This document shows positions 8,438-62,305 of a stretch of DNA of 64,000 bases, piece after piece; position 1 is the first letter of the stretch; every line of letters starts with the position of its first letter. The notes below the pieces were generated by a model. The model ran no database searches. It saw nothing but the letters and a program-made list of their open reading frames with translations, and was not told the DNA's origin. The stretch is from Candidatus Rokuibacteriota bacterium. GTDB taxonomy: Bacteria > Methylomirabilota > Methylomirabilia > Rokubacteriales > CSP1-6. The stretch spans positions 81,617 through 145,616 of the forward strand of contig JACPCW010000075.1 of assembly GCA_016184365.1 (NCBI GenBank). Direction: 5' to 3'. A program made the translations under genes and the position numbers.

Positions 8438-8507
8438 GTCGCGCCCCGGGTGTCCCGGGGCGCGTACGAGCGATGGGGGGTGTGGGGGGCCATGTCGGGG
8501 CCCCCAC
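8438..8507 (+). repeat. REP/MITE-like palindromic element, copy 1
   Basis: gcgccccgggtgtcccggggcg…gggggtgtggggggccatgtcggggccccca. Three stacked hairpins, intergenic. Confidence 0.6.
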
Positions 8508-8509
8508 CT

Positions 8510-8947
8510 TCAACGATCCCTGCTGGGCAGACCGACGGTCGCCCGGCCGGTGACGACCTTCTCGCCGCGCTGGTTCTCGGCCCAGATCTCGAGCTCGACG
8601 GTGTGCGCGCCGTCCTTGGCCACCTTGTCGACGACGCGCCCGCGGCACGTCACCGTGTCCTTCAATCGGACGAGGCCGGTGAAACGCACGCCGATCTTGC
8701 GCACGCTGCCGGCGCCCGCCCAGTCGGTCACGGCCTGCGCGACGAAGCCCATGGTCAGCATGCCGTGCGCGAACACGCCGCCCATGCCCGCGGCCTTCGC
8801 GAACTCGTCGTCCTGGTGGATCGGGTTGAAGTCGCCGGACGCGCCCGCGTACCGCGTGAGCTGAATCTGCTGGATCGGCCCCTTCTGGAGCGACGTGATC
8901 TCGGCGCCCACGACGACGTCTTCGAAGTAGACCTTGCCGTATTTCAC
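8510..8947 (-). CDS. MaoC-like (R)-hydratase/dehydratase, hot-dog fold (HadB-like)
   Basis: VKYGKVYFEDVVVGAEI…YAGASGDFNPIHQDDEFA…; GTG start preceded by AGGA. Confidence 0.7.
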   Translation of the reverse strand: MKYGKVYFEDVVVGAEITSLQKGPIQQIQLTRYAGASGDFNPIHQDDEFAKAAGMGGVFAHGMLTMGFVAQAVTDWAGAGSVRKIGVRFTGLVRLKDTVTCRGRVVDKVAKDGAHTVELEIWAENQRGEKVVTGRATVGLPSRDR

Positions 8948-8966
8948 CGGCGCCGTCCTCGCGGCG

Positions 8967-9419
8967 TCATAGCCGGACCACCGTGATGTGCCGCATCGTG
9001 GCCACGATCTCGTTCGCGTCGTCGGTCGCGACCGTCTCGCGCACGACGAACGCCATCGACCCCGTACGGCCGCTCTTCTCGTAGATGTCGATGACCTTGC
9101 TCCGGCACAGGTACGTTTCGCCCGGCCGCATCTGCCGGTGGATCTCGAATTCCTGCTCACCGTGGAGCACGCGCGAGATGTCGATGCCGAGGTCGCGGAG
9201 CGCCTGCGCCGCGATGGCCTCGTCGCGGAACGTGGTCGCGAAGGTCGGCGGCGCGACGACGTCGCCCCACTCGCTCGCGCGCCCGACGGCGTCGTCGAGG
9301 TAGAACGGGTTCAGATCGCCGATCGCGCGCGCGAACTCCTTGATCTTTCCGCGCTCGACCGTCACCGTGTACGGCGGATACTCCTTGCCGATCACACCGC
9401 GGTTCACCTGGATCGCCAT
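8967..9419 (-). CDS. hot-dog fold dehydratase subunit (HadA-like, MaoC N-terminal type)
   Basis: MAIQVNRGVIGKEYPPYTVTVERGKIKEFARAIGD…APPTFATTF…; adjacent to the MaoC-like gene, as in hadAB pairs. Confidence 0.6.
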   Translation of the reverse strand: MAIQVNRGVIGKEYPPYTVTVERGKIKEFARAIGDLNPFYLDDAVGRASEWGDVVAPPTFATTFRDEAIAAQALRDLGIDISRVLHGEQEFEIHRQMRPGETYLCRSKVIDIYEKSGRTGSMAFVVRETVATDDANEIVATMRHITVVRL

Positions 9420-9430
9420 GGCCCCGCCTT

Positions 9431-10162
9431 TTACCGCGGGTAGAGGAGGAAGTGCAAGCCCATCACGATCAGCAGCGCCTCGATCACGTGGAGGAAGACG
9501 CGGTCGCTCATGCGGTCGAGCAGCCGTCGGCCGAGCCACGAGCCCGCGAACATGGTGCCGCCGAGCACGCATCCGATCGCGATCGTGTCCCACGTGAGCA
9601 GCGCGTAGCGGGTCAGCACGACGCCGCGCGTGAGGTGCATGCCGAACGCGCAGACCGCCTCGGTCGCGATGTAGGCGCCGCGCCGGAGGCCGTAGGCGAG
9701 AAAGAACGGTGTCACCACGGGGCCCGTGGCCACGACGAGCGACGACAGGAACCCGAAGACCGCGCCGATGATCGGGAAGTGGCGCAGCCGGACCTGCACG
9801 ATCGGCGTGAACAGAAATCGGCGCAGCGGCACCGACGCGAGCAGGAAGGCGCCGATCACGAGCGACAGCGCGGTGGTCGGCGTGCCGGCGTAGAGCACCG
9901 CCCCGAGCGCCGTCGCGGGAACCGCGCCGGCGAGGAAGCGGACGCTCGCCGCGCGATCGACCTCGCCGCGGCTCCACCAGAGGCGCGAGAGATTCCCGAC
10001 GAGCATCGTGACCGTCAGAACGGGAACCGCGGCGCGCAGCCCGAGCGTCCAGGCGACGACCGGCAGCAGCACGACACCGGCGCCGAACCCGGCGACCCCG
10101 CCCAGGATCGACGCGGCGAGCGCCGTGCCGAGCAGGACCAGCCAGCCGAACGTGTCAGGCAC
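9431..10162 (-). CDS. TauE/SafE family sulfite/anion exporter (DUF81) membrane protein
   Basis: Polytopic membrane protein with glycine-rich helices typical of TauE/SafE. Confidence 0.65.
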   Translation of the reverse strand: MPDTFGWLVLLGTALAASILGGVAGFGAGVVLLPVVAWTLGLRAAVPVLTVTMLVGNLSRLWWSRGEVDRAASVRFLAGAVPATALGAVLYAGTPTTALSLVIGAFLLASVPLRRFLFTPIVQVRLRHFPIIGAVFGFLSSLVVATGPVVTPFFLAYGLRRGAYIATEAVCAFGMHLTRGVVLTRYALLTWDTIAIGCVLGGTMFAGSWLGRRLLDRMSDRVFLHVIEALLIVMGLHFLLYPR

Positions 10163-11742: not shown

Positions 11743-12926
11743 CCGCGTCCTACCGGTGGGTGATCCTCGCGCTCACCATCGTCGCCTTCATGCAGACCCA
11801 CGTGCATCGGCTCGCGTTCGCTCCGCTGATTCCGACCTTCGTCGCCGACATGGGCCTCGGGTACACCGCGGCCGGCACGATCCAGACGGCGTACTTCTGG
11901 ACCTACATGACGGCGCAGCTGCCGATCGGCCTCGCGACCGATCGCTGGGGCGCGCGCCGCGTGATGCTGACGTGCTTCGTGATCCTGATCGTCGGCGGCG
12001 CGTGGTTCGCGGCGAGCGCCAGCTACGCGGCCAGCCTCGTCGCGCGCATGCTCGTCGGCCTCGGCGCCGCGGCGGTGTGGGTGCCCGGCATGCGCCTCAT
12101 GGCGGAATGGTTTCCCGCCGCCGAGCGCGGACGCGCGACGGGCATGATGTCCGCAGGCGGCGGCATCGGCGGGACCGTCGGACTGGTCCTCGTGCCCTGG
12201 CTCGCGACGTTCTGGGGGTGGCGGCTCGCCTACGGCGTGCTCGTCGTTCCCGCCGTGCTGACGTTCGTCCTCATCGCCGTGTTCCTGCGCGGAGGCGAGG
12301 CCACCACAGCGGCGGCCGTGCGACCCGGAGCGCTCCGGCGCGTGCTCGCGTCGCACGCGTTGTGGCCGTTCAACCTGAGCGTGATCTTTTCGTACGGCGC
12401 GTACTTCAGCTTCCTCACGTTCCTGCCGGCGTACCTCGTGAAGTCGCTCGGATTTGGCGCGACGCAGGCGGGGCTCGTCACCGGCCTCATCACCGCCGGC
12501 ACGATCATTTCCTGGCCCGCGGCCGGAGTGCTGAGCGACCGGCTCGGCCGGCGGAAGGCGCTCTTCCTCGCGAGCCAGGGCGTGAGCGTCCTCGTGCCGC
12601 TCGCCTTTGCGTTCGTCGCGCCGCAGGTCGGCATGCCGGCGACGATGGCGATCGCGTTCATCTCGGGCCTGCTCGTGGGCGGCTTGATCCTGCCGTTCGT
12701 GATGATCGTGGAGCTCTTTCCGCGGGAGGACGCGGCCACCGCCTCGGGCGTGGCCAACTCCGCGTGCTTCGTCGGCGGCATCGTCCTGCCGATCGTCTTC
12801 GGCCGCATCGTGGACGTCACCGGAAGCTTCACGATCGCGTTCGTCGTCGCCGCGGCGCTGCAGGCGATCGCGTTCGTCTTCGCCCTCGGCGTGAAGGAAG
12901 CGACGCCGGTGGCGCTCCAACGGTGA
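11739..12926 (+). CDS. MFS transporter (second, tandem)
   Basis: GTG start overlaps the upstream TGA (GTGA). The MFS motifs GRRKALF/DRWGRR and hydrophobic helices are present. Confidence 0.7.
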   Translation: MTASYRWVILALTIVAFMQTHVHRLAFAPLIPTFVADMGLGYTAAGTIQTAYFWTYMTAQLPIGLATDRWGARRVMLTCFVILIVGGAWFAASASYAASLVARMLVGLGAAAVWVPGMRLMAEWFPAAERGRATGMMSAGGGIGGTVGLVLVPWLATFWGWRLAYGVLVVPAVLTFVLIAVFLRGGEATTAAAVRPGALRRVLASHALWPFNLSVIFSYGAYFSFLTFLPAYLVKSLGFGATQAGLVTGLITAGTIISWPAAGVLSDRLGRRKALFLASQGVSVLVPLAFAFVAPQVGMPATMAIAFISGLLVGGLILPFVMIVELFPREDAATASGVANSACFVGGIVLPIVFGRIVDVTGSFTIAFVVAAALQAIAFVFALGVKEATPVALQR

Positions 12927-15593: not shown

Positions 15594-16873
15594 CGACTGA
15601 CGCCTACGGGCTCCCGGTCACCACGACGTCCGATGTCGCGCTCGAGGCCTACAACCGCGGCGTCGAGGCCGCACTCGGCTGGAAAGCCGACGCGCTCGAG
15701 CTGTTCCAGGCCGCGACGCGCCAGGACCCCAATCTCGCGGTGGCGTACGCCGGCGCGGCCGCGTGCCTCTTCCTCGAAGAGCGCTTCGCGGAGACGAAGG
15801 CCGCGAGCGATGCGGCCCGCGCCATGGCGTCGCCGGCCGTCAGCGACCGCGAGCGCAGCTACGTCGAGGCGGTGACGCTCTGGACGTCCGGCAAGGTGCC
15901 GGAGGCCGAGCGCCAGATGCGCGAGCACCTGCGACGGTTTCCGCGTGATCTCGCGATCGTCCAGCGCCTGTACTTCGTCTTCTTCTGGCTCGGCAAGTTC
16001 CCGGAGATGCTGGCGGCGACGACCGAGCAGGTGCGCTCGCTCGGCGACACCTCGTACATGCTCGGCATGCATGCCTTCGCGCTCGAGGAGGCGGGGCAGT
16101 GCGCCGACGCGATGCGGATCGCCGAATCGGCGGTGGCGAAGAACCCGGAAGACGCGTGGTCGATCCACGCGCTGGCGCATGCGCTGTACGAGTCGTCGGC
16201 GTTCGACGAAGGCGTCGCGCGACTGCCGGGCGTCATCGAATCGGTCCACGGGCTCAACTGGTTTCAGAATCATCTGTGGTGGCACCTCGTCCTCATGCAT
16301 CTCGCGCGTGGAGAGTACGACCACGTGTCGACGCTGTCGCGCGACCTGTTCGAGCGCGAGCCGTCGTCGATCGCCGGCGACCTGCACGATTCGATCTCGC
16401 TGATGTGGCGGCTCGAGCTCGCCGGGAAGCCGGTCGGCGACCGATGGGCGCCGTTCGCCGACATCGCGCGCGAGCGGGTGAGCCGCACCGGTTTGTACTT
16501 CCACGTCGCGCACGTTGCGATGGCGCTCGCCGCGGTCGGCGACTCGGCGACGACACAGAAGCAGCTTGGCGTCCTGCGTGATCGCGCCGCCAGGGACGCG
16601 ACGGGGTTGTTGGGCGAGGTGCTCGTGCCGCTCGTCGAAGGCATCCACGCCTTCGGCGGCCGCGATTACGCGACGACGATCGCGAAGATCGAGCCGCTGC
16701 GGTCACGCATCGTGCATCTCGGCGGCAGTCGCGCGCAGCGTGACGTGTTTCACGACACGCTGCTCGAAGCCTGTTTCCGGGCGGGTGACATGGACCGGGC
16801 GGAGCGCCTGCTGACCGAACGCCTCGGGCGCCGGCCGGATCACTACTGGAAGAATCGGCGCGGGGTGGGGTAG
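15590..16873 (+). CDS. TTC38-like tetratricopeptide/helical-repeat protein
   Basis: YGLPVTTTSDVALEAYNRG…QDPNLAVAYAGAA… resembles the TTC38 family. ATGA overlap with the hydrolase stop; an alternative ATG exists at 15578. Confidence 0.55.
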   Translation: MTTDAYGLPVTTTSDVALEAYNRGVEAALGWKADALELFQAATRQDPNLAVAYAGAAACLFLEERFAETKAASDAARAMASPAVSDRERSYVEAVTLWTSGKVPEAERQMREHLRRFPRDLAIVQRLYFVFFWLGKFPEMLAATTEQVRSLGDTSYMLGMHAFALEEAGQCADAMRIAESAVAKNPEDAWSIHALAHALYESSAFDEGVARLPGVIESVHGLNWFQNHLWWHLVLMHLARGEYDHVSTLSRDLFEREPSSIAGDLHDSISLMWRLELAGKPVGDRWAPFADIARERVSRTGLYFHVAHVAMALAAVGDSATTQKQLGVLRDRAARDATGLLGEVLVPLVEGIHAFGGRDYATTIAKIEPLRSRIVHLGGSRAQRDVFHDTLLEACFRAGDMDRAERLLTERLGRRPDHYWKNRRGVG

Positions 16874-17828: not shown

Positions 17829-17895
17829 CGTTCGGACTCCTTCCGTCGATCCTACTCTGAAGCTCGCATCCGTTGTCGGCCCAACACCCGGTCGG

Positions 17896-18438: not shown

Positions 18439-18479
18439 GATCTCCTCGCCACGGCGCCCAAGCTGCCGAACGCCCGCGG

Positions 18480-18809: not shown

Positions 18810-18820
18810 GGTGTCGCTCC

Positions 18821-24778: not shown

Positions 24779-24791
24779 GGGTGGTCGAGGA

Positions 24792-24857
24792 GCGCCACGG
24801 GTGTCCCGGGGCGCTCCGAGGGCTGGGGGGTTTGGGGGGCCATGTCGGGGCCCCCCA
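24792..24857 (+). repeat. REP/MITE-like palindromic element, copy 2
   Basis: gcgccacgggtgtcccggggcgctccgagggctggggggtttggggggccatgtcggggcccccca, between the two permease genes. Confidence 0.6.
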
Positions 24858-24869
24858 TGTCATCGATCG

Positions 24870-29152: not shown

Positions 29153-29174
29153 TCAGCAGCGCGACGGCGAGGAG

Positions 29175-29287
29175 CGTCCCGGGTCGAGACGGGCCCGGGG
29201 TTTCCCCGGGACCGTCGAGCGATCGGGGGTCGAGGGGGCCCTTCGAGGCCCCCTCGATGATCGGACGGGCCATGTCGGGGCCCCCCA
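29175..29287 (+). repeat. composite palindromic repeat carrying the REP core (gggccatgtcggggcccccca) plus two extra perfect hairpins
   Basis: cccggggtttccccggg and tcgagggggcccttcgaggccccctcga precede the core hairpin. Confidence 0.5.
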
Positions 29288-37523: not shown

Positions 37524-37530
37524 TCGAGGC

Positions 37531-37596
37531 GCGCCACGGCTTCGCCGGGGCGCGTCCGAGCGTCCGGGGGGTATGGGGGCCATATCGGGGCCCCCA
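37531..37596 (+). repeat. REP/MITE-like palindromic element, copy 4 (core variant ccatAtcg)
   Basis: gcgccacggcttcgccggggcgcgtccgagcgtccggggggtatgggggccatatcggggccccca. Confidence 0.6.
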
Positions 37597-37599
37597 TGT

Positions 37600-49175: not shown

Positions 49176-49182
49176 TCAATTG

Positions 49183-49248
49183 GGGGGCCCCGATATGGCC
49201 CCCACCCCCCCCAACGCTCGGGCCGCCCCGGGAAACCCGGGGCGCCCC
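49183..49248 (-). repeat. REP/MITE-like palindromic element, copy 5 (reverse orientation)
   Basis: Reverse complement reads ggcgccccgggtttcccggggcggcccgagcgttgggggggtgggggccatatcggggccccca. Confidence 0.6.
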
Positions 49249-49257
49249 TCGACCTCG

Positions 49258-51147: not shown

Positions 51148-52374
<1,227 letters not shown>

Positions 52375-52388
52375 GGGGCAAGGGGGCC

Positions 52389-52787: not shown

Positions 52788-52809
52788 GAAAAGGGAGGAC
52801 GTCCGTTCC

Positions 52810-53136: not shown

Positions 53137-53210
53137 CCGGGGTCGTCCGAACTGACGCGGGCGGGCCCGAACCTCGGGCCCGTTCCTATTTTCGGGGACG
53201 CATAGAGCAG

Positions 53211-53801: not shown

Positions 53802-55632
53802 CCTCGGGACGACGAACAGCCTCGTCGCGTACGTCGACGAGAAGACGAATCTGCCGCGCGTCATCCCGGACGAGCGCGGGCGCGCGCTGCTGCCGTCGAT
53901 CGTGGCGTTCACGCCCGAAGGCATCCTCGTCGGCGAGGCCGCGCGCCGCCAGCTCGTGCGCCGGCCGCGCGCCACGGTCTACTCGGTGAAGCGGCTGATG
54001 GGCCGCGGCTTCGACGACGTGAAGGGTGAGCTGCGCTACCTGCCGTTCGCCATCGCGCCCGCCGACGGGATCGTCAAGATCCAGGTCGAGGGGCGCGAGG
54101 TCACGCCGCCGGAGGTGTCCGCGGTCGTGCTGCGGGCGCTCAAGGAGCGCGCCGAGCGGCATTTCGGCGAGGCGATCGAGCAGGCGGTCATCACCGTGCC
54201 CGCGTACTTCAACGACAGCCAGCGCCAGGCGACGCGCGACGCCGGCCGCATCGCGGGCCTCGACGTCGTCCGCATCGTGAACGAGCCGACGGCGGCGTCG
54301 CTCGCCTACGGCCTCGACCGTCTCAAGCGCGGCGTCGTCGCGGTCTACGACCTCGGCGGCGGCACGTTCGACATCTCCATCCTGCGCGTCAACGAGGGGA
54401 TCTTCGAGGTCCTCGCGACGAACGGCGACACGCACCTCGGCGGTGACGATTTCGATCGCGTGCTGATGTTGTGGCTGGCCGAAGACATCCAGTCCCATCA
54501 TCATCGCGAGCTCGCGCAGGCCGGCGTCGATCTGGTGCGCGATGCCGACGCCGCCCAGGAGCTGCGGCTCGCCGCCGAGGCGGCCAAGATGCGGCTCTCG
54601 ACCGTGGAGCGGACGACGCTGACGATCCCGTTCGCCGATTTCACGTATCACCGCGACATCCCGCGTGACGACATCGAGCGGCTGATTGCGCCGCTCGTGG
54701 CCAAGACGCTCGGCCCGTGCCGGCAGGCGCTGAAGGACGCCGGGCTCGGCGCGTCCGAGATCGACGAGGTCGTGCTCGTCGGCGGCTCGACGCGTGTCCC
54801 GCTCGTGCGCCGTCGCGTGCAGGAGCTGTTTGGCCGCGTGCCGCACAGCCAGCTGAATCCCGACGAGGTCGTCGCGCTCGGCGCCGCCGTCCAGGCCCAC
54901 ATCCTCGCGGGCGGCATCACCGACATGCTGCTGCTCGACGTCACGCCGCTGTCGCTCGGGATCGAAACGCTCGGCGGCATCGTGAGCGTGCTGATTCCGC
55001 GCAACACGACCATCCCGACGAGCGCACGGGAGATGTTCACGACGTCCGTGGACGGGCAGACCGTCGTCGACATGCACGTCCTGCAGGGTGAGCGCGAGCT
55101 GGCGAAAGATTGCCGATCGCTCGCGCGGTTCGAGCTCTCCGGGATCGATCCGATGCCGGCGGGCATGCCTCGGATCGAGGTCACGTTCCTGATCGACGCC
55201 AACGGCCTGCTCACGACGACGGCGAAAGAGCTCCGAACGGGGAAGGCGGCGGCGATCGAGGTGAAGCCGACCTACGGTCTGAGCGAGACGGAAGTCCAGC
55301 GCATGGTCGAGGACTCGTTCACGTACGCCGAAGCCGACGTCGAGACGCGCCTGCTGATCGAGGCGCGGAACGAGGCCGACACGGTGATCACGCACGTGGA
55401 GCGCGCGCTGCGGCAGGGCGCGCATCTCGCGACGGACGCAGAGCGGCGCGCGATCGAGGCCGCCCTCGCGAAGCTCCGGCAGGCACGTGGCGGGGACGAT
55501 CGCCACGTGATCATCGAGACGACGACCGCGTTGAACCGGGCGACGGAACACCTCGCCGAGGTGATGATGGACGCGGCGCTGAGGGGCGCCATCCAGAGCC
55601 GCCGCGCCGACGAGATCATGGAGTCGCAGTGA
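53779..55632 (+). CDS. hscA: Fe-S assembly chaperone HscA (Hsp70)
   Basis: IIGIDLGTTNSLVA…DLGGGTFDIS… are Hsp70 motifs. Confidence 0.85.
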   Translation: MSRIIGIDLGTTNSLVAYVDEKTNLPRVIPDERGRALLPSIVAFTPEGILVGEAARRQLVRRPRATVYSVKRLMGRGFDDVKGELRYLPFAIAPADGIVKIQVEGREVTPPEVSAVVLRALKERAERHFGEAIEQAVITVPAYFNDSQRQATRDAGRIAGLDVVRIVNEPTAASLAYGLDRLKRGVVAVYDLGGGTFDISILRVNEGIFEVLATNGDTHLGGDDFDRVLMLWLAEDIQSHHHRELAQAGVDLVRDADAAQELRLAAEAAKMRLSTVERTTLTIPFADFTYHRDIPRDDIERLIAPLVAKTLGPCRQALKDAGLGASEIDEVVLVGGSTRVPLVRRRVQELFGRVPHSQLNPDEVVALGAAVQAHILAGGITDMLLLDVTPLSLGIETLGGIVSVLIPRNTTIPTSAREMFTTSVDGQTVVDMHVLQGERELAKDCRSLARFELSGIDPMPAGMPRIEVTFLIDANGLLTTTAKELRTGKAAAIEVKPTYGLSETEVQRMVEDSFTYAEADVETRLLIEARNEADTVITHVERALRQGAHLATDAERRAIEAALAKLRQARGGDDRHVIIETTTALNRATEHLAEVMMDAALRGAIQSRRADEIMESQ

Positions 55633-55955
55633 TGGCTGTACACCGCGTGACGTTTCTCCCCCTCAACCAGACGGTCGAGGTGGACGATACGAAGTACCCG
55701 TTCGGCGACCACGGCAAGCCGGGCTCGGTGCTCGACATCGCGCTCGCCAACGACATCGAACTCGAGCACAACTGCGGCGGCAGCTGCGCCTGTACGACGT
55801 GCCACGTCGTCGTGCGCGAAGGCAAGGAGAACCTGTCCGAGATGCAGGAGGACGAGGAGGACCGGCTCGACATGGCGGAAGGCCTCACCATCCACTCGCG
55901 CCTCGGCTGCCAGGCGGTCGTGCGCGGCGACGTCGTCGTGGAGATCCCGAAGTGA
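55632..55955 (+). CDS. fdx: [2Fe-2S] ferredoxin of the ISC system
   Basis: CGGSCACTTCHV…LGCQ cysteine pattern. ATGA overlap with hscA. Confidence 0.8.
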   Translation: MAVHRVTFLPLNQTVEVDDTKYPFGDHGKPGSVLDIALANDIELEHNCGGSCACTTCHVVVREGKENLSEMQEDEEDRLDMAEGLTIHSRLGCQAVVRGDVVVEIPK

Positions 55956-56158
55956 GCCTGCGCTGGCGCGACGCCGAGGACATCGCCATCGCGCTCGCCG
56001 AGAAGTTTCCCGACACGGACCCGCTCACCGTGCGATTCACGGATCTGCACCGCTGGGTGACCGAGCTCGACGGGTTCTCCGACGACGTGAAGGCGTCGAA
56101 CGAAGGGATGCTCGAGAAGATCCAGATGGCGTGGCTGGAGGAGCACCGCGGCCGCTGA
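55952..56158 (+). CDS. iscX: Fe-S assembly protein IscX
   Basis: SLRWRDAEDIAIALAEKFPDTDPLTVRFTDLHRWVTELDGFSDD resembles IscX/YfhJ. GTGA overlap. Confidence 0.7.
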   Translation: MSLRWRDAEDIAIALAEKFPDTDPLTVRFTDLHRWVTELDGFSDDVKASNEGMLEKIQMAWLEEHRGR

Positions 56159-56171
56159 GGCGGACGAGCGG

Positions 56172-56396
56172 TTACCACGCGATGACGCGCTCGGCTTCGA
56201 ACACGAGGTCCAGGAGTTGCGAGTAGGACACGTCCTCGGGAACGCGAACCCGCCGGACGCCGGCGGGCACGCCGGCCGACGCGGCGCCGTCGAGCAGCGC
56301 GACCGTGACGCGGTCGCCGGCGGCGACTTCCCGCCGCATCGTCTCGTCGGCCAGCGGATGGCCGCCCGCCTTGAGCAGGTGCAGGACGGTCGCCAT
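56172..56396 (-). CDS. DsrH/TusB-like sulfur-relay protein
   Basis: 74-aa protein, last gene of a DsrE-DsrF-DsrH-like trio. TGATG overlap with the preceding gene. Confidence 0.45.
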   Translation of the reverse strand: MATVLHLLKAGGHPLADETMRREVAAGDRVTVALLDGAASAGVPAGVRRVRVPEDVSYSQLLDLVFEAERVIAW

Positions 56397-56758
56397 CAGA
56401 ACACGATGAAGCGGCGGCCGCGCGTCACGAGGGCGGCGAGCTCATCGCGCGAGAGCGGCACGACGGGATGGCCGTCGGCGTTCCAGTCCGGATCGTCGGG
56501 AATCGCATCGCGATCGACGTGGAAGGGGATGTCGAGCGCTTTGAGATTCGCGCGGAACTTCGCGATGTCGTCGCCGTCGACGAGGTCGTCGGTGTCGCCG
56601 TCGAGCAGATGGACGCCGTGGCCGGTGAGCACGAACGTCACCTCGTTTTCGCCGGCGATGATGCCGAGGCCGATCCGCATGCCCTCGTTGGCGCGGTGCG
56701 ACTGGCGGGCGTCGCTGGAGATGACGACGAGCACAGGCGCTTGCTCAGACGGTGGCAT
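56396..56758 (-). CDS. DsrF/TusC-like sulfur-relay protein
   Basis: DsrE/DsrF-fold pattern (…LVVISSDARQ…VTFVLTGHGV…). Confidence 0.5.
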   Translation of the reverse strand: MPPSEQAPVLVVISSDARQSHRANEGMRIGLGIIAGENEVTFVLTGHGVHLLDGDTDDLVDGDDIAKFRANLKALDIPFHVDRDAIPDDPDWNADGHPVVPLSRDELAALVTRGRRFIVF

Positions 56759-56785
56759 CGTGGTCCTTCCCGCGTGTTCGAGGCC

Positions 56786-56847
56786 GGCGCCGGGTTCCCC
56801 GGCGCCGGCCGAGCGCTGGGGGTCTGGGGGCCATGTCGGGGCCCCCA
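56786..56847 (+). repeat. REP/MITE-like palindromic element, copy 6 (between dsrE-like and dsrF-like genes)
   Basis: ggcgccgggttccccggcgccggccgagcgctgggggtctgggggccatgtcggggccccca. The 5' hairpin here is GCCGGCGCCGGG-tt-CCCCGGCGCCGGC. Confidence 0.6.
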
Positions 56848-56849
56848 GG

Positions 56850-57170
56850 TCAATTGAGCGCGATGAAGCGATCCGTGCCGTTGATCAGGTCGGTGAGCAC
56901 GACGAGACCGCAGTACGTGACGGTGTCGGCGTCCTCGAGCGCGATGCGCCGCTTCTGACAGCCGTACGCGCAGACGAACAGCTTCGCGCCGCGGTCCGCG
57001 AGCGGTCGCACGTCGCGCAGCGCCCGCACGCCGTCGTCGATGAGGTAGAGGTAGACGGACGCGCCGCGATCGAGCGCGGCGTCCGCGAGACCGCGCGCGG
57101 CGCGCAGATTCGTCGCGTGATCCGGTCCGGTCGACAGCATGAGGCCGAGTTTTTTCTTCGCGAGCTCCAT
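56850..57170 (-). CDS. DsrE/TusD-like sulfur-relay protein
   Basis: …LFVCAYGCQKR… carries the conserved DsrE Cys motif. Confidence 0.55.
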   Translation of the reverse strand: MELAKKKLGLMLSTGPDHATNLRAARGLADAALDRGASVYLYLIDDGVRALRDVRPLADRGAKLFVCAYGCQKRRIALEDADTVTYCGLVVLTDLINGTDRFIALN

Positions 57171-57211
57171 CGCGAAGCGAGCGTAACACCCGCACCCGGA
57201 GGGGGCAATCG

Positions 57212-58366
57212 ATGAGCCGCCGCGTCTACCTCGATCACAACGCGTCGACGCCCGTGCATCCCGACGTCGTCGCCGAGATGCTGCCGTTCTTCAGCGAGAC
57301 GTTCGGCAACCCGTCCAGCGTGCACGGCTTCGGCCGCGAAGCGCGCGACGGCATGGACCAGGCGCGGGCGCGGATGGCCGCGTTCATGCGCACGAGTCCC
57401 GACGAGCTCGTGTTCACGTCCGGCGGGACGGAGTCGGACAACCTCGCCATCAAGGGCGTCGCGTACGCCGCGAAGCGCGGCCACCTGATCACGTCGAAGA
57501 TCGAGCACCACGCGGTGCTCCGCACGTGTCAGTGGCTCGAGACGCAGGGCTTCGCGGTCACGTATCTCGACGTCGACGAGTACGGCATGGTCGATCCGGA
57601 CGACGTCAAGCACGCGATGCGCCCGGACACGATCGCGATCAGCATCATGCACGCGAACAGCGAAGTCGGGACGATCCAGCCCATCGCCGCGATCGGCGCG
57701 CTCGCGCGCGAGCGTGGTGTGCCGCTCCACGTCGACGCCGTCCAGACGTTCGGCAAGGTGCCGATCGACGTCGACGCCATGGGCATCAGTCTGCTCAGCG
57801 CCTCCAGCCACAAGATCTACGGGCCGAAGGGCGTGGCGCTGCTCTGGATCCGCAAGGGGACCCGGATGGTCTCGGTCCAGCACGGCGGCGAGCACGAGCG
57901 GCGGCGGCGCGCCGGCACCGAGAACGTCGCCGGCATCGTCGGGTTCGGCAAGGCCCTGGAGATTCGCGGGCGCGACATGGCCGCCGAGGCGACGCGGCTG
58001 ACCGCGCTGCGCGATCGGCTCTGGGACGGCATTCGCGCGGCGGTGCCGGACGTGAAGCTGAACGGCCATCCGACCGAGCGCCTGCCGGGGACGGCGAACC
58101 TGTCGTACCGCAACGTCGAGTCCGAATCCATCGTGCTCGGCCTGGATCTCAAGGGGGTGGGGGTGTCCGCGGGCTCGGCGTGCACGTCGGGCAGCGTGGA
58201 GCCCTCGTACGTGCTGGTCGCGATGGGGGTGTCGCTCGACTGGGCGATGGGCGCCGTGCGGCATTCGCTCGGGCGGTCCACGACGGCGGAGGACATCGAT
58301 TACGTCGTCGCGTCCGTCGAGCCGATCGTCCGGAGGCTTCGCGAGAAGATGCCGGTCACTGCGTGA
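57212..58366 (+). CDS. nifS: cysteine desulfurase (NifS-like, second copy)
   Basis: RVYLDHNASTP…FTSGGTESDNLAIKG…SSHKIYGPKG…SAGSACTSG. Confidence 0.8.
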   Translation: MSRRVYLDHNASTPVHPDVVAEMLPFFSETFGNPSSVHGFGREARDGMDQARARMAAFMRTSPDELVFTSGGTESDNLAIKGVAYAAKRGHLITSKIEHHAVLRTCQWLETQGFAVTYLDVDEYGMVDPDDVKHAMRPDTIAISIMHANSEVGTIQPIAAIGALARERGVPLHVDAVQTFGKVPIDVDAMGISLLSASSHKIYGPKGVALLWIRKGTRMVSVQHGGEHERRRRAGTENVAGIVGFGKALEIRGRDMAAEATRLTALRDRLWDGIRAAVPDVKLNGHPTERLPGTANLSYRNVESESIVLGLDLKGVGVSAGSACTSGSVEPSYVLVAMGVSLDWAMGAVRHSLGRSTTAEDIDYVVASVEPIVRRLREKMPVTA

Positions 58367-58734
58367 GGTACAGCCGCACCCTCGTCGACCATTTCCTCAA
58401 CCCGCGCAACGCCGGGATGATGCGGGAGCCCGACGGCGTCGGCGAGGATCGGTACGAGGGATGCGGCGACCTCGCGCGGTTCTTTCTGCGCGCGCCGGAC
58501 GGCGTCGTGGTGGAGGCGCGGTTCCAGACATGGGGCTGCGGACCGACGATCGCCGCGGCCAGCGCCGCCAGCGAGCTCGTCGCGGGGCGGCGGCTCGACG
58601 ACGTGGCGCGGCTCGAGCCGGTCGAAGTCGAGCGCGCGCTCGACGGGTTGCCGGAGGACCGGAAACACGCGGCCGACGTGGTCGCCGGCGCGCTTCGCGC
58701 GGCGGCGCGCGCGTGCCTCGGACGGGATGGATGA
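58363..58734 (+). CDS. NifU/SufU-like Fe-S scaffold-type protein
   Basis: [18 protein letters not shown]…GCGDLARFF…[16 protein letters not shown] overlap with nifS. Confidence 0.6.
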
Positions 58735-59407
58735 CGTGTTCGACGACCTGAAGCGTGACATCCGCGTCGTACGCGAGCGCGACCCGGCCGCGCGCTCGTC
58801 GCTGGAGGTCCTCGTCTGCTACCCCGGCGTTCATGCGCTCGCGCTGCATCGCGTCGGGCATCGCCTGTGGAACGCCGGCTGGACGACGCTCGCCCGGCTG
58901 GTGTCCCACGTGTCGCGGTTCGTGACGGGCATCGAGATCCACCCGGCGGCCAGGATCGGGCGCGGCTGCTTCATCGACCACGGCATGGGCATCGTCATCG
59001 GCGAGACGGCCGAGATCGGCGACAACGTGAGCCTCCTGCAGGGCGTGACGCTCGGCGGAACGAGCACGAAGCGCGAGAAGCGCCACCCGACGCTCGGCAA
59101 CAACGTCACCGTCGGCGCGGGCGCGAAGATCATCGGCGCATTCCGCATCGGCGACGGCAGCCGCATCGGCGCCGGCTCGGTGGTCGTGCGCGAGGTGCCG
59201 CCGAATTCGGTCGTCGTCGGCGTGCCCGGACGGGTCACGTTCCGCGACGGCCAGCGCGTGACCGACGGCATCGATCTCAACCAGACGGACCTGCCGGATC
59301 CCGTCGCCAACGCGCTCGAGCAGCTGCTGGAGCGTATCCGCGCGCTCGAAGCGGAGCTCGAGGCGATGCGCAAGACCGTCGAGCGCGACGAGCGGTCGGC
59401 GCGGTGA
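58727..59407 (+). CDS. cysE: serine O-acetyltransferase
   Basis: …[41 protein letters not shown]… hexapeptide repeats. Confidence 0.8.
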
Positions 59408-59432
59408 GCGATCCGCTGCGCGAGGTCGAGGA

Positions 59433-59495
59433 GCGCCACGGGTTCCCCGGGGCGCTCCGAGCGCCGGGGGTCTGGGGGCCATGTCGGGGCCCCCA
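59433..59495 (+). repeat. REP/MITE-like palindromic element, copy 7
   Basis: gcgccacgggttccccggggcgctccgagcgccgggggtctgggggccatgtcggggccccca, followed by agcacgatcgat. Confidence 0.6.
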
Positions 59496-59555
59496 GCACG
59501 ATCGATGAGGGCGCACGCCGTGATCGAGCCGGGCGACGGCTTTGCCGGCGGCCGG

Positions 59556-59595
59556 CGAGCGGTGGGGGTCTGGGGGCCATGTCGGGGCCCCCAGC
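59556..59595 (+). repeat. REP-like element, copy 8 (3' half only, tandem to copy 7)
   Basis: ggcgagcggtgggggtctgggggccatgtcggggccccca followed again by agcacgatcgat; a local tandem duplication. Confidence 0.55.
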
Positions 59596-60161
59596 ACGAT
59601 CGATTCGACCGCGCGCAGGCGTGGTCGCTGCTGACCGAGTTCACGAAGGGCGAGTCACTGCGGAAGCACGCGCGCGCGGTCGAGGCGTCGATGCGCGCGT
59701 ACGCGGCGCGATACGACGCCGACGCCGACCGCTGGGGCGTCGCCGGGATGCTCCACGACTTCGACTACGAGATGCACCCGCGCGCGCCGCATCATCCGAT
59801 GAAGGGCGCGGAAATCCTGCGTGCCCGCGGCGTGCCCGACGACGTCGTGTACGCGATCCTCGCGCACGCCGACTATTCCGGGATGCCGCGCACGTCGCTG
59901 CTGGATCGGGCGCTCTACGCGTGCGACGAGCTCACGGGCTTCGTGCACGCGTGCGCGCTCGTCCGGCCCGGCAAGGTCGTGACGGGTCTCGATCCGTCGT
60001 CGGTCAGGAAGAAGCTCAAGGACAAGGCGTTCGCGCGGACGGTGAACCGGGACGACGTGTATCGCGGAGCCACCGAGCTCGGGGTCGACCTGGACGCGCA
60101 CATCGCGTTCGTCGTTTCCGCGCTCACCGACGTCGCGCCGGACGTCGGTCTCTCACGCTAG
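59562..60161 (+). CDS. HD-domain phosphohydrolase (YqeK-like); N-terminus and start codon embedded in REP copy 8
   Basis: …AWSLLTEFTKGESLRKHARAVEASMR…GMLHDFDY has the H…HD motifs. There is no conventional start between the REP and the domain. The in-frame candidates are GTG 59562 and ATG 59505/59481, all inside or between the repeats. Confidence 0.5.
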   Translation: MGVWGPCRGPQHDRFDRAQAWSLLTEFTKGESLRKHARAVEASMRAYAARYDADADRWGVAGMLHDFDYEMHPRAPHHPMKGAEILRARGVPDDVVYAILAHADYSGMPRTSLLDRALYACDELTGFVHACALVRPGKVVTGLDPSSVRKKLKDKAFARTVNRDDVYRGATELGVDLDAHIAFVVSALTDVAPDVGLSR

Positions 60162-60217
60162 ACCGCGCGTTCCGCCCGGCCAGCGCGCCGGACGCCGCGC
60201 CGACGGGAGGGCATAGC

Positions 60218-61396
60218 GTGGTGGAGCGGCATCGCGCGATCGCGCACGTCGACATGGACGCGTTCTACGCGTCCGTCGAGCAGCGGGACCGCCCGGAGCT
60301 GCGCGGTCGCCCGGTGGTCGTCGGCGCCGATCCGGGTGGACGTGGCGTGGTGTCCGCCGCGTCCTACGAGGCGCGCGTCTTCGGCGTCCGCTCCGCGATG
60401 CCGATCTCGAAGGCGGTGCGGCTCTGCCCGCAGGCCGCCTTCGTTCCGGTCGACATGCCGAAGTACCAGGCCGTCTCGGCGGAGATCATGGCGATCCTGG
60501 CCGACTTCTCGCCCGTCGTCGAGCCGCTGTCCGTCGACGAGGCGTTCGTGGATCTCACGGGAACGGATCGCCTCCACGGCACGCCGGTGGACGCCGTCGC
60601 GGCCATGAAGACACGCATCCGGTGCGAGACGGGGCTGACCGCGTCGGCCGGCCTCGCGCCGAACAAGTTCCTCGCGAAGGTGGCGTCGGACCTCCGGAAG
60701 CCCGATGGCCTCGTCGTCGTTGCGCCGGGCGAGGAAGCCGCGTTCCTCGCACCGCTCGGCGTCGAGCGTATCTGGGGCGTCGGCAAGGTGACGGCCGCGG
60801 AGCTGGCGACGCTCGGGATCCGGACGGTCGGTCAGCTGCAGCGCCTGTCGCCGGCGGTGCTGACGCGGCGGTTCGGCGCCGCTCACGGCGCACACCTCGC
60901 GGACCTCGCGGTCGGACGCGACGATCGTCCGGTGGAGCCGTTCTCGCCGCCGAAGTCGATGGGCGCCGAGACGACGTTCGACGTCGACACCCGCGACCGC
61001 AGCCGGCTCGAAGTCGAGCTGCGCGCACAGGCCGAGCGTGTGGCGCGGGAGCTCAGATCGGAGGCTCTCGCGGGCGCGTGCATCACGCTGAAGCTTCGTC
61101 TCGTGCCGTGGCAGACGCTGACGCGGAGTCACACCGCCGACCCGACGCAGGACGGCCTGGAGATCTACCGGCGCGCGCAGACGCTGCTGTCGAGAGAACC
61201 GCTCGACCGGCCGGTTCGCCTCATCGGTGTGTCGGTCTCGCACCTCGGGCCGGCGGCCGCAGGCCAGCTGGACCTTCTCGATCCCGCCGCCCTCCGGCGC
61301 GAGCGGCTCGCGCACGTCGTCGATCGTCTCGCACGGCGCTTCGGCGACGGCGTCGTCAAGCCGGCGAGCCTGCTCGACCCCGAACACCCGTCGTAA
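60218..61396 (+). CDS. dinB: DNA polymerase IV
   Basis: IAHVDMDAFYASVEQRDRPEL…SIDEAFLDL-like and …GVGKVTAAELATLGIRTVGQL. GGGAGGG RBS and GTG start. Confidence 0.8.
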   Translation: MVERHRAIAHVDMDAFYASVEQRDRPELRGRPVVVGADPGGRGVVSAASYEARVFGVRSAMPISKAVRLCPQAAFVPVDMPKYQAVSAEIMAILADFSPVVEPLSVDEAFVDLTGTDRLHGTPVDAVAAMKTRIRCETGLTASAGLAPNKFLAKVASDLRKPDGLVVVAPGEEAAFLAPLGVERIWGVGKVTAAELATLGIRTVGQLQRLSPAVLTRRFGAAHGAHLADLAVGRDDRPVEPFSPPKSMGAETTFDVDTRDRSRLEVELRAQAERVARELRSEALAGACITLKLRLVPWQTLTRSHTADPTQDGLEIYRRAQTLLSREPLDRPVRLIGVSVSHLGPAAAGQLDLLDPAALRRERLAHVVDRLARRFGDGVVKPASLLDPEHPS

Positions 61397-61483
61397 GCGC
61401 GCGAAATCGCGGGCGCGGTTTGCGCGCCTCGGGAGCATCGGCTACACTCGGCCGCGCACGACATTTCGTCGCCCGGAGCGTCC

Positions 61484-62239
61484 ATGGATCGGCCGATCGC
61501 CTACGACAAGCTCGCACGTGAAAATCGCTTCGTCCGCATGCGGGCTCGCGACGTCGGCGAGCTGCGCGTGGAGCAGGGGCTCGCGCCGTTCCCCGATCTG
61601 GCCTCGCCGGAATCGATCCGCGAGCGCGTGCACGGCATCATGGTCGGCGAGCTGCAGGCCATGGAAGGCGCCGGACGCAGCGTCTACGATTTCCCGGACG
61701 CGCCGTGGGAGTTCACCATGGACATGGCGCGCCAGGTCTGGGACGAGTCGCGCCACGTCGAGATCTACCTCGCGCTGATCGATCACCTGGGCGGCTACGC
61801 CGGGGAGTTCCCGGAGACGACGATCCTGTGGCGCTGCGCCTGCGCCGAGGACGCCGCGGCGCGCGTCGCGGGCGTCAACCGCGGGCTCGAAGGCCTGGCG
61901 TGCGACGTCTTCGCCCAGCTGATCCACATCGCGAAGAAGATCGGCGACCCCGTGATCGAGCGTGCCGTCGACTTCGTGCTCGCCGACGAGATCACGCACG
62001 TCCGCATGGGCTCGCGCTGGCTCAACGAGCTGACGCGCGACGATCCCGAGCGCCGCCGCCGCGCCGTCGAGTTCCAGGATTCGATCGACGAGCGCTTCAA
62101 CCTCGGCGGCGCGCGGCGCGACGGCGCGCCGGAAGAGGTCGGCATCTCGATCGCGAAGGACGCCCGCCGTCTCGCCGGATTCACGGACGAGGAAATCGAG
62201 CGCCTGATCAAGTCCACGCAACGCTCGCCGGTTTATTAG
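61484..62239 (+). CDS. ferritin-like di-iron domain protein (DUF455-like)
   Basis: Two ExxH motifs (DESRHVE…, DEITHV…). Confidence 0.45.
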   Translation: MDRPIAYDKLARENRFVRMRARDVGELRVEQGLAPFPDLASPESIRERVHGIMVGELQAMEGAGRSVYDFPDAPWEFTMDMARQVWDESRHVEIYLALIDHLGGYAGEFPETTILWRCACAEDAAARVAGVNRGLEGLACDVFAQLIHIAKKIGDPVIERAVDFVLADEITHVRMGSRWLNELTRDDPERRRRAVEFQDSIDERFNLGGARRDGAPEEVGISIAKDARRLAGFTDEEIERLIKSTQRSPVY

Positions 62240-62241
62240 AT

Positions 62242-62305
62242 GGGGGGCCCCGACATGGCCCCCCATACCCCCCGTCGCTCGGAACGCCCGCGGCGAAGCC
62301 GCGGT
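62242..62305 (-). repeat. REP/MITE-like palindromic element, copy 9 (reverse orientation)
   Basis: Reverse complement reads …ccgcggcttcgccgcgggcgttccgagcgacggggggtatggggggccatgtcggggccccca. Confidence 0.6.

Follow-up and report, generated by a model that had tools for sequence, protein, structure and literature searches.

What are the short folded repeats that recur between the genes of this locus, and how did they come to be there? A first-pass annotation of the stretch of DNA analysed here (64,000 nt, hereafter the window; it comes from the genome of an uncultured soil/groundwater member of the Rokubacteria) had proposed about nine dispersed intergenic copies of a REP- or MITE-like repeat made of three stacked hairpins. 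We searched the window for GGGGGCCATRTCGGGGCCCCC, allowing at most three mismatches, and found nine matches (8485+, 24835+, 29265+ with two mismatches, 37575+, 49183-, 56826+, 59474+, 59572+, and 62243-), where shuffled sequences gave 0.02. A covariance model trained on 95 copies recovered exactly nine full-length elements, scoring 63-89 bits; the next match reached 21.6 bits and lies within a gene. Set against chance expectation, this is a real family of intergenic, two-hairpin repeats of about 72 nt in Rokubacteria. The full copies in the window measure 69-73 nt and are accompanied by one remnant. The number of dispersed copies stands, as does their position outside coding bodies, since all those in the window lie in intergenic gaps.

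Read 5' to 3' on the G-rich strand, the element may begin with a 5' module of some 20-25 nt (e.g., GAGCCCGTGAACGAATCGC) and otherwise consists of TCGAGG, hairpin 1, a linker, and hairpin 2. Hairpin 1 has 13 bp of variable sequence, as in GGAGCGCC-A-CGGC-TTC-GCCG-G-GGCGCTCC, and carries an A·G mismatch at one position in about half of the copies, so that it is not always the perfect palindrome previously described. The linker comprises an invariant unpaired CGAGCG (CCGAGCG), 2 nt, and then a G-run (G5-7). Hairpin 2 is constant, GGGGGCC-ATNTCGG-GGCCCCC (a G5CC/GGC5 stem and an ATNTCGG loop), with a covarying stem extension of 3-4 bp at its foot. The minimum-energy fold contains both hairpins on both strands (z-scores -2.7 to -4.2). 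We found two hairpins rather than three: the supposed 5' palindrome is the apex of hairpin 1, and the supposed middle hairpin, GCGCTC-c-GAGCGC, would have a 1-nt loop and reuse the 3' arm of hairpin 1, and shows no covariation (score 0.109, shuffles 0.107). The 3' hairpin is indeed invariant within the subfamily of the window, but not in other genomes, which have the loops ATTTC, ATCTC, ATTCC, and CACTC and other apexes.

The copies nearly fill gaps of 82-136 nt, measured from gene to gene (stop to stop at 37524-37599) with codon-model gene calls as bounds. Three lie in convergent gaps. The copy at 8434..8508 (+, 76.6 bits; TCGAG, hairpin 1, CGAGCG, G-run, and hairpin 2) sits between an upstream TGA ending at 8427 and an antisense stop TCA at 8510-8512. 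At 37524..37598 (+, 83.2 bits), TCGAG directly adjoins the upstream TGA (37521-37523), and the antisense stop at 37600-37602 is that of a small zf-HC2 ORF. The copy at 49179..49252 (-, 75.1 bits) separates convergent GalT-like and glutamate dehydrogenase genes, with a spacer of 82 nt in the window and 1 nt in the relative L104 ('TGAcCTA'). Two others are antisense to their neighbours. One (24785..24859, +, 88.9 bits) lies between two minus-strand genes in a gap of 91 nt (24779-24869), where the orthologous junction of L064 is the 4-nt 'CATggttTCA'. The other (56778..56849, +, 77.8 bits) lies between two minus-strand DsrE-like genes, with an antisense stop TCA 3 nt past hairpin 2; the site has 4 nt in L104 ('CACgagcCTA'), and in L105, a 97% strain, the copy in this spacer is inverted and displaced relative to that of the window. 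The copy at 29184..29257 (+, 63 bits) is in sense at an operon junction that reads 'TGAggtgGTG' in L013. It has a variant hairpin 2, TCGAGGGGGCC-CTTCGA-GGCCCCCTCGA, and is followed at 29265..29285 (+) by a lone degenerate hairpin-2 remnant, ACGGGCCATGTCGGGGCCCCC, with two mismatches in the 5' arm (18.4 bits, partial). The composite reported at 29175 thus resolves into one full copy, with the hairpin-2 apex GGGGGCC-CTTCGA-GGCCCCC, and this remnant. Two copies form a 98-nt tandem pair, the first (59426..59497, +, 80.3 bits) downstream of a serine acetyltransferase gene (stop 59405-59407). The second (59524..59595, +, 68.5 bits), which had been taken for a half copy at 59556, is a full one; its hairpin 1 differs from that of the first, whereas hairpin 2 and the 3' tail are identical. 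The HD-domain gene further downstream has no in-frame start codons other than GTG at 59520 and 59562, which lie at or inside this copy. Finally, the element at 62239..62336 (-, 82.7 bits), a full copy (62239-62314) plus the 5' module GAGCGAATCACGGCCACGGAG (62315-62336), fills the whole spacer from the TAG of a DUF455 gene to the GTG of the next gene, where L104 has 12 nt.

Five sites filled in the window thus correspond to spacers of 4, 4, 1, 4, and 12 nt in relatives (L064, L013, and L104). Conversely, L104 has a filled site where the window has a spacer of 13 nt, and L038 and L108 carry copies between hscB and hscA, genes that overlap in the window. These comparisons involve species that are about 13-20% diverged (the short L105 contig excepted), so that the precise boundaries of the element, and whether a site changed by insertion or by precise deletion, are inferred. 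Across one conserved 17-kb isc/hsc region, none of L104, L107, L108, and L109 shares an occupied site with the window. Copies turn over rapidly. Those that remain occupy, in either orientation, only places where genes stay unbroken, namely spacers of 1-13 nt at operon junctions and at the 3' ends of genes. Signs of decay, seen in the degenerate lone hairpin 2 at 29265 and in a truncated element of L104 (8926-9008), speak against strong selection on individual loci.

The position of the copies invites a reading in terms of RNA: a host regulatory element that stops transcription in both directions, or a 3'-end hairpin that protects mRNA from exonucleases or uncouples adjacent genes. Selection would maintain it site by site, and duplication or recombination, not transposition, would have spread it. 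Copies lie just past stop codons, within a few bases of them, and their contexts (42 sense, 41 antisense, 32 convergent, and 7 divergent) differ from those of element-free gaps by an approximately 3-fold enrichment in convergent gaps and a depletion in divergent ones (chi-square p = 6e-9). The median native spacer is 10 nt in tandem and 20 nt in convergent gaps. On either strand, the hairpins are also highly stable as DNA (-26 to -33 kcal/mol), and hairpin 2 is kept while hairpin 1 drifts: the former is identical in eight of the nine window copies, among which the latter differs widely, a pattern that selection by the host on hairpin 2, site by site, could also produce. Such action has been proposed for REPs elsewhere (PMC3733652). 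We nevertheless regard this reading as unlikely, because orientation relative to transcription is random, no occupied site is kept between the window and four relatives in the same operon, and some insertions delete the Shine-Dalgarno sequence or the start codon. The terminator role suggested earlier is not supported either: there is no T/U tract after the hairpins of either strand, and a terminator scan of 48000-64000 called a canonical site at 53159-53185 but none of the six copies scanned. A canonical terminator was rejected on these grounds.

The stems themselves carry evidence on which molecule folds. The compensatory changes reported earlier are confirmed: 14 of 24 pairs differ on both sides, and the covariation score (0.242) exceeds that of shuffles (0.090; 0 of 500 reach 0.242) and of slid controls (at most 0.08). 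Examples are pairs 31-35 (CG 60, GC 33) and 71-93 (GC 46, UA 38). Hairpin 1 is free to change in sequence provided that pairing is kept. Template-switch mutation can also yield compensatory changes in palindromes, without any selection. Stem mismatches, counted over copies that are non-independent events because subfamilies share them, are G·T in 88 cases and A·C in 7 (27 and 5 in hairpin 1 alone). This excess holds whichever way the neighbouring genes run (26:3 in sense, 30:4 in antisense, and 22:0 in convergent contexts), which indicates that one specific strand folds. The bias follows the strand of the element even in antisense copies, the opposite of what selection on transcripts predicts; together with the balanced orientations, this speaks against mRNA stability as the source of the covariation, as had been suggested.

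The excess of G·T over A·C and the covarying stems, which point to a folded single strand, also speak against a duplex DNA signal read by a host protein, be it a nucleoid or gyrase site of the BIME kind, a site that organises the chromosome, or an uptake-type signal that accumulates by biased recombination. The identity of the 21-mer across dozens of species, the presence of both orientations, and the absence of viral sequences carrying the core among the matches listed would fit such a signal, and the conserved unpaired parts (CGAGCG, the G-run, and the ATNTCGG loop) suggest sequence-specific recognition. Yet copies occur about once per 7 kb and almost never within genes, whereas uptake sequences are commoner and also found within genes, and mobile repeats typically have the modular, composite build (70-115 nt), the tandem arrays, and the subfamilies seen here. 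We find a duplex signal improbable.

We favour, as the probable explanation, a small, non-coding and non-autonomous mobile element that resembles REP/BIME elements, is specific to Rokubacteria (phylum Methylomirabilota), and is copied via a strand-specific single-stranded intermediate. An enzyme supplied in trans would copy or move the element, reading the constant hairpin 2 and the linker on one strand, single-stranded and folded. Only lineages in which the G-rich strand still folds would keep propagating, which would explain both the compensatory changes and the G·T rather than A·C mismatches. Folded single-strand substrates are read by HUH/Y1 enzymes (RAYT and the TnpA of IS200/IS605) and by integron integrases. 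A RAYT-like partner is our leading guess, a tentative one: about 0.8 Mb of Rokubacteria DNA around copies contained no Y1/HUH-like (RAYT/IS200-like) ORF, transposase, or other partner. Neither terminal inverted repeats nor consistent target-site duplications, which would demonstrate transposition, are present. The window shows no sign of a very recent burst, since no pair of its copies comes close to identity across hairpin 1.

Mobility could also mean a classical MITE or a miniature derived from IS200/IS605, a cut-and-paste element whose two ends are recognised by a transposase of a known family. One hairpin lies near each end, folding is strand-specific as in IS200/IS605 elements, and the 3' flank is often T(T)CA/TGA-like, with TCA, TTA, or CTA starting at +3 to +8 in 78 of 124 copies. 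But the flanking TCA is usually the pre-existing stop codon of the neighbouring gene, since empty sites show the same stop. Hairpins 1 and 2 are unrelated in sequence, while the left and right ends of IS200/IS605 have similar hairpins, and the sampled DNA held no parent insertion sequence. Terminal inverted repeats are at the level of shuffles (5.8 of 18 matches, against 5.4), and the flanks show no consistent fixed-length direct repeat or target-site duplication. This alternative is very improbable, and the label MITE-like does not fit.

Mycobacterial interspersed repetitive units (MIRUs) are reportedly elements of 40-100 nt at operon junctions, also in tandem arrays, whose short reading frames are said to overlap the upstream stop and the downstream start, so that translational coupling survives. 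The hscB of L038 and L108 is similar: its reading frame continues across the element and stops 1-2 nt short of the hscA ATG. MIRUs, however, are reportedly oriented with transcription and not defined by hairpins, whereas in our element, which occurs in both orientations, it is structural features that are conserved. Integron attC sites lie directly after a gene stop and are imperfect palindromes that vary in sequence and are recognised in folded, single-stranded form with a specific polarity; the element shares the variable palindrome, the strand-specific fold, and the position at the stop. Yet attC sites have one orientation, in cassette arrays adjoining an integrase gene, and the element is scattered among housekeeping genes in both orientations, without the R/L box consensus. 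Correia/NEMIS MITEs and Rickettsia palindromic elements are likewise small, non-coding, high-copy insertions that remodel gene ends and are occasionally translated, but the element lacks terminal inverted repeats and target duplication and is rarely in coding bodies.

The closest likeness is to REP/BIME sequences: GC-rich extragenic palindromes in either orientation, with covarying stems and clustered composite or tandem arrangements, mostly between unidirectional and convergent genes a few bases from stops, and sometimes supplying stops or being read as part of ORFs. Published REP families show the same placement: stop codons fall within 20 bp of them, and ORFs can run into REPs. They include GTAG- and CGTC-tagged superfamilies and are known from E. 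coli, Pseudomonas, and Stenotrophomonas (PMC3733652). The element differs in having about 72 nt and two unrelated hairpins (a REP is one palindrome of 20-40 nt), one near-fixed across a phylum-level group and the other free to vary, and in lacking the GTAG or CGTC tag, alternating inverted doublets, and a linked RAYT. As in the REPIN-RAYT system (Bertels & Rainey; PMC3116915, PMC3337134), a population of short folded repeats appears to evolve as a replicating lineage in which only variants that preserve structure persist, chromosome-borne and not found on viral contigs among the matches listed. A REPIN, however, is two inverted REPs in one long hairpin, flanking a single-copy RAYT gene, and REPIN positions are reported to be long-lived and vertically inherited (PMC3116915, PMC3337134), whereas this doublet geometry is absent among our copies, no RAYT was seen in the 0.8 Mb around them, and within one operon species differ entirely in which sites are occupied.

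Beyond the window, the motif is present across many Rokubacteria genomes. Among the matches listed, the exact core occurs in more than 103 stretches of 44 species-representative assemblies (MAGs), 40 of them labelled Rokubacteria, Rokuibacteriota, or Methylomirabilota. The covariance model gave 148 matches in 0.71 Mb, among them tandem arrays and subfamilies that have different loops, and a genome probably holds hundreds of copies. Rfam has no match for the element, and the literature searched held no description of it. The dispersed, structured, extragenic, REP-like family of the first-pass annotation is supported, and looks like a new family of small REP-like mobile repeats. Once inserted, a copy would leave a stable pair of hairpins right after a stop codon and may sometimes add a new C-terminal tail (hscB in L038 and L108), replace a start codon (the HD-domain gene of the window), or cost a gene its Shine-Dalgarno sequence.

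The 21-mer GGGGGCCATRTCGGGGCCCCC matches the window nine times with at most three mismatches (8485+, 24835+, 29265+, 37575+, 49183-, 56826+, 59474+, 59572+ and 62243-), against 0.02 times in dinucleotide-preserving shuffles. A covariance model trained on 95 copies from the window and its relatives also gives exactly nine full-length matches in the window (63-89 bits); the runner-up, at 21.6 bits, falls in a coding region. These counts confirm the dispersed repeat proposed by the first-pass annotation. In the alignment of the window copies, the unit measures 69-73 nt, from TCGAG to the end of a C-run. The low-scoring model match at 16726-16777 falls within a gene and is not a copy. The segment 29265-29285 is a lone, degenerate hairpin 2 (the constant 3' hairpin of the unit); such lone units occur, but are a minority. 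Because the G+C content of the window is about 70%, genes were called with a codon log-odds model, and by these calls each full copy sits in a gap of 82-136 nt that it almost fills. The density is about one copy per 7 kb (nine in 64 kb), with essentially none in coding bodies. Copies also stand head to tail, as in the pair at 59426/59524 (98 nt) and in arrays of four (L063, L090) or five copies (L075, L101), the L handles denoting stretches of related species or strains that carry or lack copies.

The repeat is structured, as had been claimed, but has two hairpins and not three. Hairpin 1, at the 5' side, has 13 bp (GGAGCGCC-A-CGGC / TTC / GCCG-G-GGCGCTCC). Its sequence varies widely among copies and its pairing is kept, with changes on both sides in 10 of the 13 pairs and an apical pair that is CG in 60 copies and GC in 33; one position has an A·G mismatch in roughly half of the copies. 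Hairpin 2 (GGGGGCC / ATNTCGG / GGCCCCC) stands on a covarying foot of 3-4 bp, whose first pair is GC (46) or UA (38) and whose next pair is UA (54), CG (10) or AU (6). The covariation score of the whole structure is 0.242, compared with 0.090 ± 0.006 in shuffles, of which none in 500 reaches this value; sliding the pairing partners gives at most 0.08. That the alignment shows no variation in the seven core pairs of hairpin 2 is due only to the retrieval of relatives by exact match. Among copies detected with the model, hairpin 2 has the loops ATTTC, ATCTC, ATTCC and CACTC and also other apexes (e.g., GGGGGGCTTCGNNNGTCCCCCC and GGGGGCCGTCGAGGCCCCC), and the repeat therefore has subfamilies. Between the hairpins lies a near-invariant unpaired CCGAGCG, then 2 nt and a run of 5-7 G. 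The middle hairpin of the earlier description, GCGCTC-c-GAGCGC, would have a 1-nt loop and borrow an arm of hairpin 1; it does not covary (0.109 against 0.107 in shuffles) and was rejected. The two hairpins of a unit show no sequence relatedness. Together they form the optimal single-strand fold on either strand, the G-rich one (the top strand of the element) being more stable by 2-4 kcal/mol. Outside the window genome, many copies are extended by a further 5' module, GAGCCCGTGAACGAATCGC or GATGAGCACGCGGG; a shortened form of this module is present in the copy at 62243.

Several further sequence features accompany this structure. The palindrome TCGA (often GATCGA or ATCGAT) occurs at the 5' end, as TCGAGG, and again 8-14 nt past hairpin 2 (in the window at 24785-24869, 59426-59506 and 59524-59604, and at many other loci), and ATCGA is found 16 times in 3' flanks where 4 are expected. 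The TCGA repeats could close a three-way junction, an example being the centroid fold of the copy at 24785. Four runs of at least three G are present on the G-rich strand in 86 of the 95 aligned copies with a first loop of at most 15 nt, and in 23 of the 95 with all loops of at most 7 nt, so that this strand has G-quadruplex potential. The G-run of the unpaired linker is nearly invariant, yet the two-hairpin model supplies no structural reason for it. A second, tiny palindromic repeat, GGTGCGTCCGCGCACC, is nested as one or two units in the hairpin 1 loop of several copies (L017 4936-5063, L054 123-231, L046 ~7360, L107 ~12490-12540; one groundwater Rokubacteria genome, JACPDG), and resembles a repeat family of its own, with hairpin loops as its target.

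The pairing is strand-specific. Counted by cells in the stems, which are not independent events, non-Watson-Crick pairs include 88 G·T versus 7 A·C (27 versus 5 in hairpin 1 alone). The ratio points in the same direction in sense (26:3), antisense (30:4) and convergent copies (22:0). Pairing maintained in mRNA should reverse this bias in antisense copies; since no reversal is seen, the structure is tied to the G-rich strand of the element. The bias is consistent with a folded single strand being recognised while the element is copied, and speaks against the covariation having arisen by selection on host transcripts. Template-switch mutation can restore palindromes too.

We classified the placement of 122 copies, all with the exact core (the constant 21-mer of hairpin 2): 42 lie in tandem gaps in sense, 41 in tandem gaps in antisense, 32 in convergent gaps and 7 in divergent gaps. 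Of the gaps that hold a copy, 65 are tandem, 29 convergent and 5 divergent, versus 484, 54 and 83 element-free gaps in the same DNA, an approximately threefold enrichment of convergent gaps and a depletion of divergent ones (p = 6e-9). At the gene end facing hairpin 2, the stop codon nearly always begins 2-8 nt past the C-run; native spacers in these genomes are tiny, the median being 10 nt for tandem and 20 nt for convergent gene pairs. In the window copy at 37524-37598, hairpin 2 is 4 nt from the end (37600) of a small ORF on the minus strand. This ORF (37600-37900, -) encodes an anti-sigma-type zf-HC2 zinc finger and overlaps a longer spurious ORF. In intrinsic (Rho-independent) terminators, a GC-rich hairpin is followed by a U-tract and oriented with transcription. 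A scan for hairpins with T-runs called none of the six copies in 48000-64000, and the near equality of sense and antisense copies also speaks against this function. The same region has a canonical intrinsic terminator after an iscA-like gene (53159-53185, +; a 12-bp GC stem, then CTATTTTCGG), which shows that terminators with a T-tract, a feature that the repeat lacks, are in use in this organism.

The gain and loss of copies is rapid. Five spacers of the window that hold copies correspond to syntenic empty sites in relatives: 24779-24869 (91 nt) to 4 nt in L064 (CATggttTCA), 29153-29288 (136 nt) to 4 nt in L013 (TGAggtgGTG), and, in L104, 49176-49257 (82 nt) to 1 nt (TGAcCTA), 56735-56849 (115 nt) to 4 nt (CACgagcCTA) and 62240-62336 (97 nt) to 12 nt. 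Conversely, hscB and hscA, which overlap in the window, have a copy at their junction in L038 and L108, and L104 has a decayed copy in a spacer that measures 13 nt in the window. Across the conserved isc/hsc region, L104, L107, L108 and L109 have no occupied site in common with the window, and L109 has no copy at all. L105, a strain with 97% identical IscS, has the copy of the DsrE/DsrE spacer inverted and displaced relative to the window. This closest relative, represented by a 2.3-kb contig that terminates in a copy, offered no clean strain-level empty site. Exact-protein searches for such a site gave no match with the DsrE gene of the window and, with SAT, a 1.2-kb contig that likewise ends in the repeat.

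In the convergent GalT/GDH gap, where the window has a repeat copy, L107 carries an unrelated insert of 183 nt (1821-2005) bounded by a 22-bp inverted repeat (GCGGCGAGGGCGGGGTGGGCTC ... GAGCCCACCCCGCCCTCGCCGC). The copy at 24785-24859 lies between two paralogous genes of about 597 residues (22017-23813 and 25870-27660, both -), 3856 nt apart, whose nucleotide sequences are 70-86% identical for the greater part of the genes. The segment 16000-20000 has a G+C of 0.65-0.66, compared with about 0.70, and 17829-19434 is free of genes according to the codon model, although Pfam places there DinB_2 (17896-18483, -) and DUF2442 (18480-18875, -); this segment may be recently acquired DNA.

Filled and empty sites also bear on the proposal that the repeat is a MITE. 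These elements have terminal inverted repeats and a target-site duplication of fixed length. When the 5' end is compared with the reverse complement of the 3' end, 5.8 of 18 positions match (5.4 ± 0.2 in shuffles), and the longest word shared by the flanks averages 4.2 nt (3.8 in controls), an excess that comes from at most 12 copies with a shared word of at least 6 nt, for which tandem arrays are the putative source. The pairs of filled and empty sites show no duplication. The 3' flank is enriched for TCA or TCAA, and the long 5' module often starts with CTCAGAGCC, elsewhere with CTCGGAGCC; a 3-nt TCA target duplication was considered and dropped because in the empty sites the 3' TCA mostly turns out to be the stop codon of the adjacent gene. 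The repeat was rightly seen as REP-like and structurally constrained, but it is neither a MITE nor a canonical terminator.

Compared with other named classes, the repeat misses defining features of several of them, yet behaves like them. DNA uptake sequences (DUS/USS-like) have about 10-12 nt and no internal modular structure, are very frequent and occur also inside genes, whereas the repeat is a modular unit of 70-115 nt, found about once per 7 kb and hardly ever in coding bodies. Miniature elements derived from IS200/IS605 have similar subterminal hairpins at both ends and insert 3' of a fixed tetra- or pentanucleotide; the two hairpins of the repeat are dissimilar, its 3' flank shows the TCA/TCAA enrichment described above, and its strand-specific folding is compatible with this family. 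In the REPIN-RAYT system, repeats flank a single-copy RAYT (Y1/HUH) gene, and the REPIN doublet consists of two inverted REPs forming one long hairpin; adjacent copies of our repeat stand head to tail instead (59426/59524 and the arrays of L063, L075, L090 and L101). REPs sensu stricto are single imperfect palindromes of 20-40 bp with an unpaired GTAG or CGTC tag at one end (PMC3733652). The repeat differs in its length of 69-73 nt, its two different hairpins and its conserved linker, and its consensus flanks are TCGAGG, CCGAGCG and G-runs, with no GTAG, CTAC or CGTC at the stem feet of the 95 aligned copies. Its placement is that of REP families, which are high-copy and extragenic, lie mainly between unidirectional or convergent ORFs near their 3' ends, have stop codons within 20 bp and in some cases are read into ORFs (PMC3733652); copy density, gap classes (p = 6e-9) and stop-codon proximity all agree with this.

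The repeat appears to be undescribed so far. No description was found in the literature searched, which included the founding Rokubacteria paper, nor by core sequence. Rfam 15 gave no match to the window at gathering score and only chance-level matches (E > 0.8) at permissive E-values for single copies, including the long form, and a tRNA/tmRNA scan found none. A scan for the exact core with one genome per species found it in more than 103 stretches from at least 44 assemblies. A search of viral contigs gave no exact match to the core. Among the matches listed, 40 of 44 assemblies are labelled Rokubacteria, Rokuibacteriota, Methylomirabilota or Methylomirabilia. The remaining four, all bins, bear the labels Acidoferrum, Anaerolineaceae, Binatia and "uncultured bacterium"; mis-binning is likely since at least two of them share 70-77% nucleotide identity with Rokubacteria contigs. 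The window IscS is 87% identical to proteins named Candidatus Rokubacteria, and the neighbours of the copies are housekeeping genes, such as the isc/hsc Fe-S cluster operon, DinB and glutamate dehydrogenase.

Copies may alter neighbouring genes. In L038 (1347-1433) and L108 (4694-4781), the hscB frame reads through the copy in the same frame (...GGMGGH(V/I)GAPH...) and stops 1-2 nt before the hscA ATG (53770-53801 is the window equivalent). The GGAGGA ribosome-binding site of the window is lost in L038, and HscB of L108 is annotated with 223 residues instead of about 196, i.e., 27 too long, because the frame continues through the copy. In the window (59405-59700), the ATG of an HD-domain gene, within ATGATCGACCGC in L104, is replaced by CGATTCGACCGC. 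This loss of the ancestral ATG leaves just two in-frame start codons, GTG at 59520 and GTG at 59562, both of which lie at or inside the second copy, so that the first ~14-28 residues would be encoded by the repeat. Four relatives have a 59-residue HTH_17 gene between the serine acetyltransferase and HD genes (L104 12188-12367, L107 12215-12394, L108 10455-10634, L109 12358-12537); it is absent from the window, where the space holds two repeat copies (59408-59655).

How this structured, dispersed and extragenic repeat spreads can be approached from its strand-specific pairing. An enzyme acting in trans would recognise the folded G-rich strand by its hairpin 2 and linker and make copies of the element, and insertions would persist only in tiny spacers at gene ends. 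No Y1/HUH-like ORF was found in about 0.8 Mb around copies; a single-copy gene may lie elsewhere in these genomes of 6-8 Mb. The E. coli RAYT YafM, searched by tblastn and phmmer in these loci and the window, gave no match, nor did a regular expression for the HUH motif (xxPxHxHxx) in six frames over the same DNA, both weak tests. A gene of L029 flanked by inverted copies was considered as a transposase, but encodes the ATP synthase epsilon subunit. We regard it as improbable that an enzyme family new to bacterial repeats reads the fixed hairpin 2, the G-run and CGAGCG on the G-rich single strand and delivers copies specifically to stop-codon junctions. If it did, such delivery would reach spacers of just 1 nt between convergent stop codons, and would make this a new, phylum-wide, targeted mobile system and not one more REP family. 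In a variant of this reading, the G-rich strand would be a switch between G-quadruplex and hairpin, given the four G-runs of most copies.

The contrast between one hairpin fixed in sequence and another fixed in shape only, together with the clear strand polarity, is of value for the study of mobile DNA, and provides a specific handle for finding the reader protein. The covariance model is directly usable for masking and annotating the repeat in Methylomirabilota MAGs. This matters in practice. Short-read assemblies based on k-mers are broken by the repeat at gene junctions: two Logan contigs of organisms closely related to that of the window, L105 (1-71) and L106 (1186-1230), terminate within a copy. 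Gene calls are also inflated or distorted, as in hscB of L108 and the HD-domain gene whose start lies inside a copy. Rokubacteria are abundant, uncultured bacteria of soil and groundwater with unusually large genomes. We know of no description of what their non-coding DNA contains. It is reported to amount to 8-17% of the genome (PMC5712423), and at the observed density the repeat would make up a visible share of the intergenic DNA. The repeat also remodels junctions within operons of core pathways, Fe-S cluster assembly being one of them.
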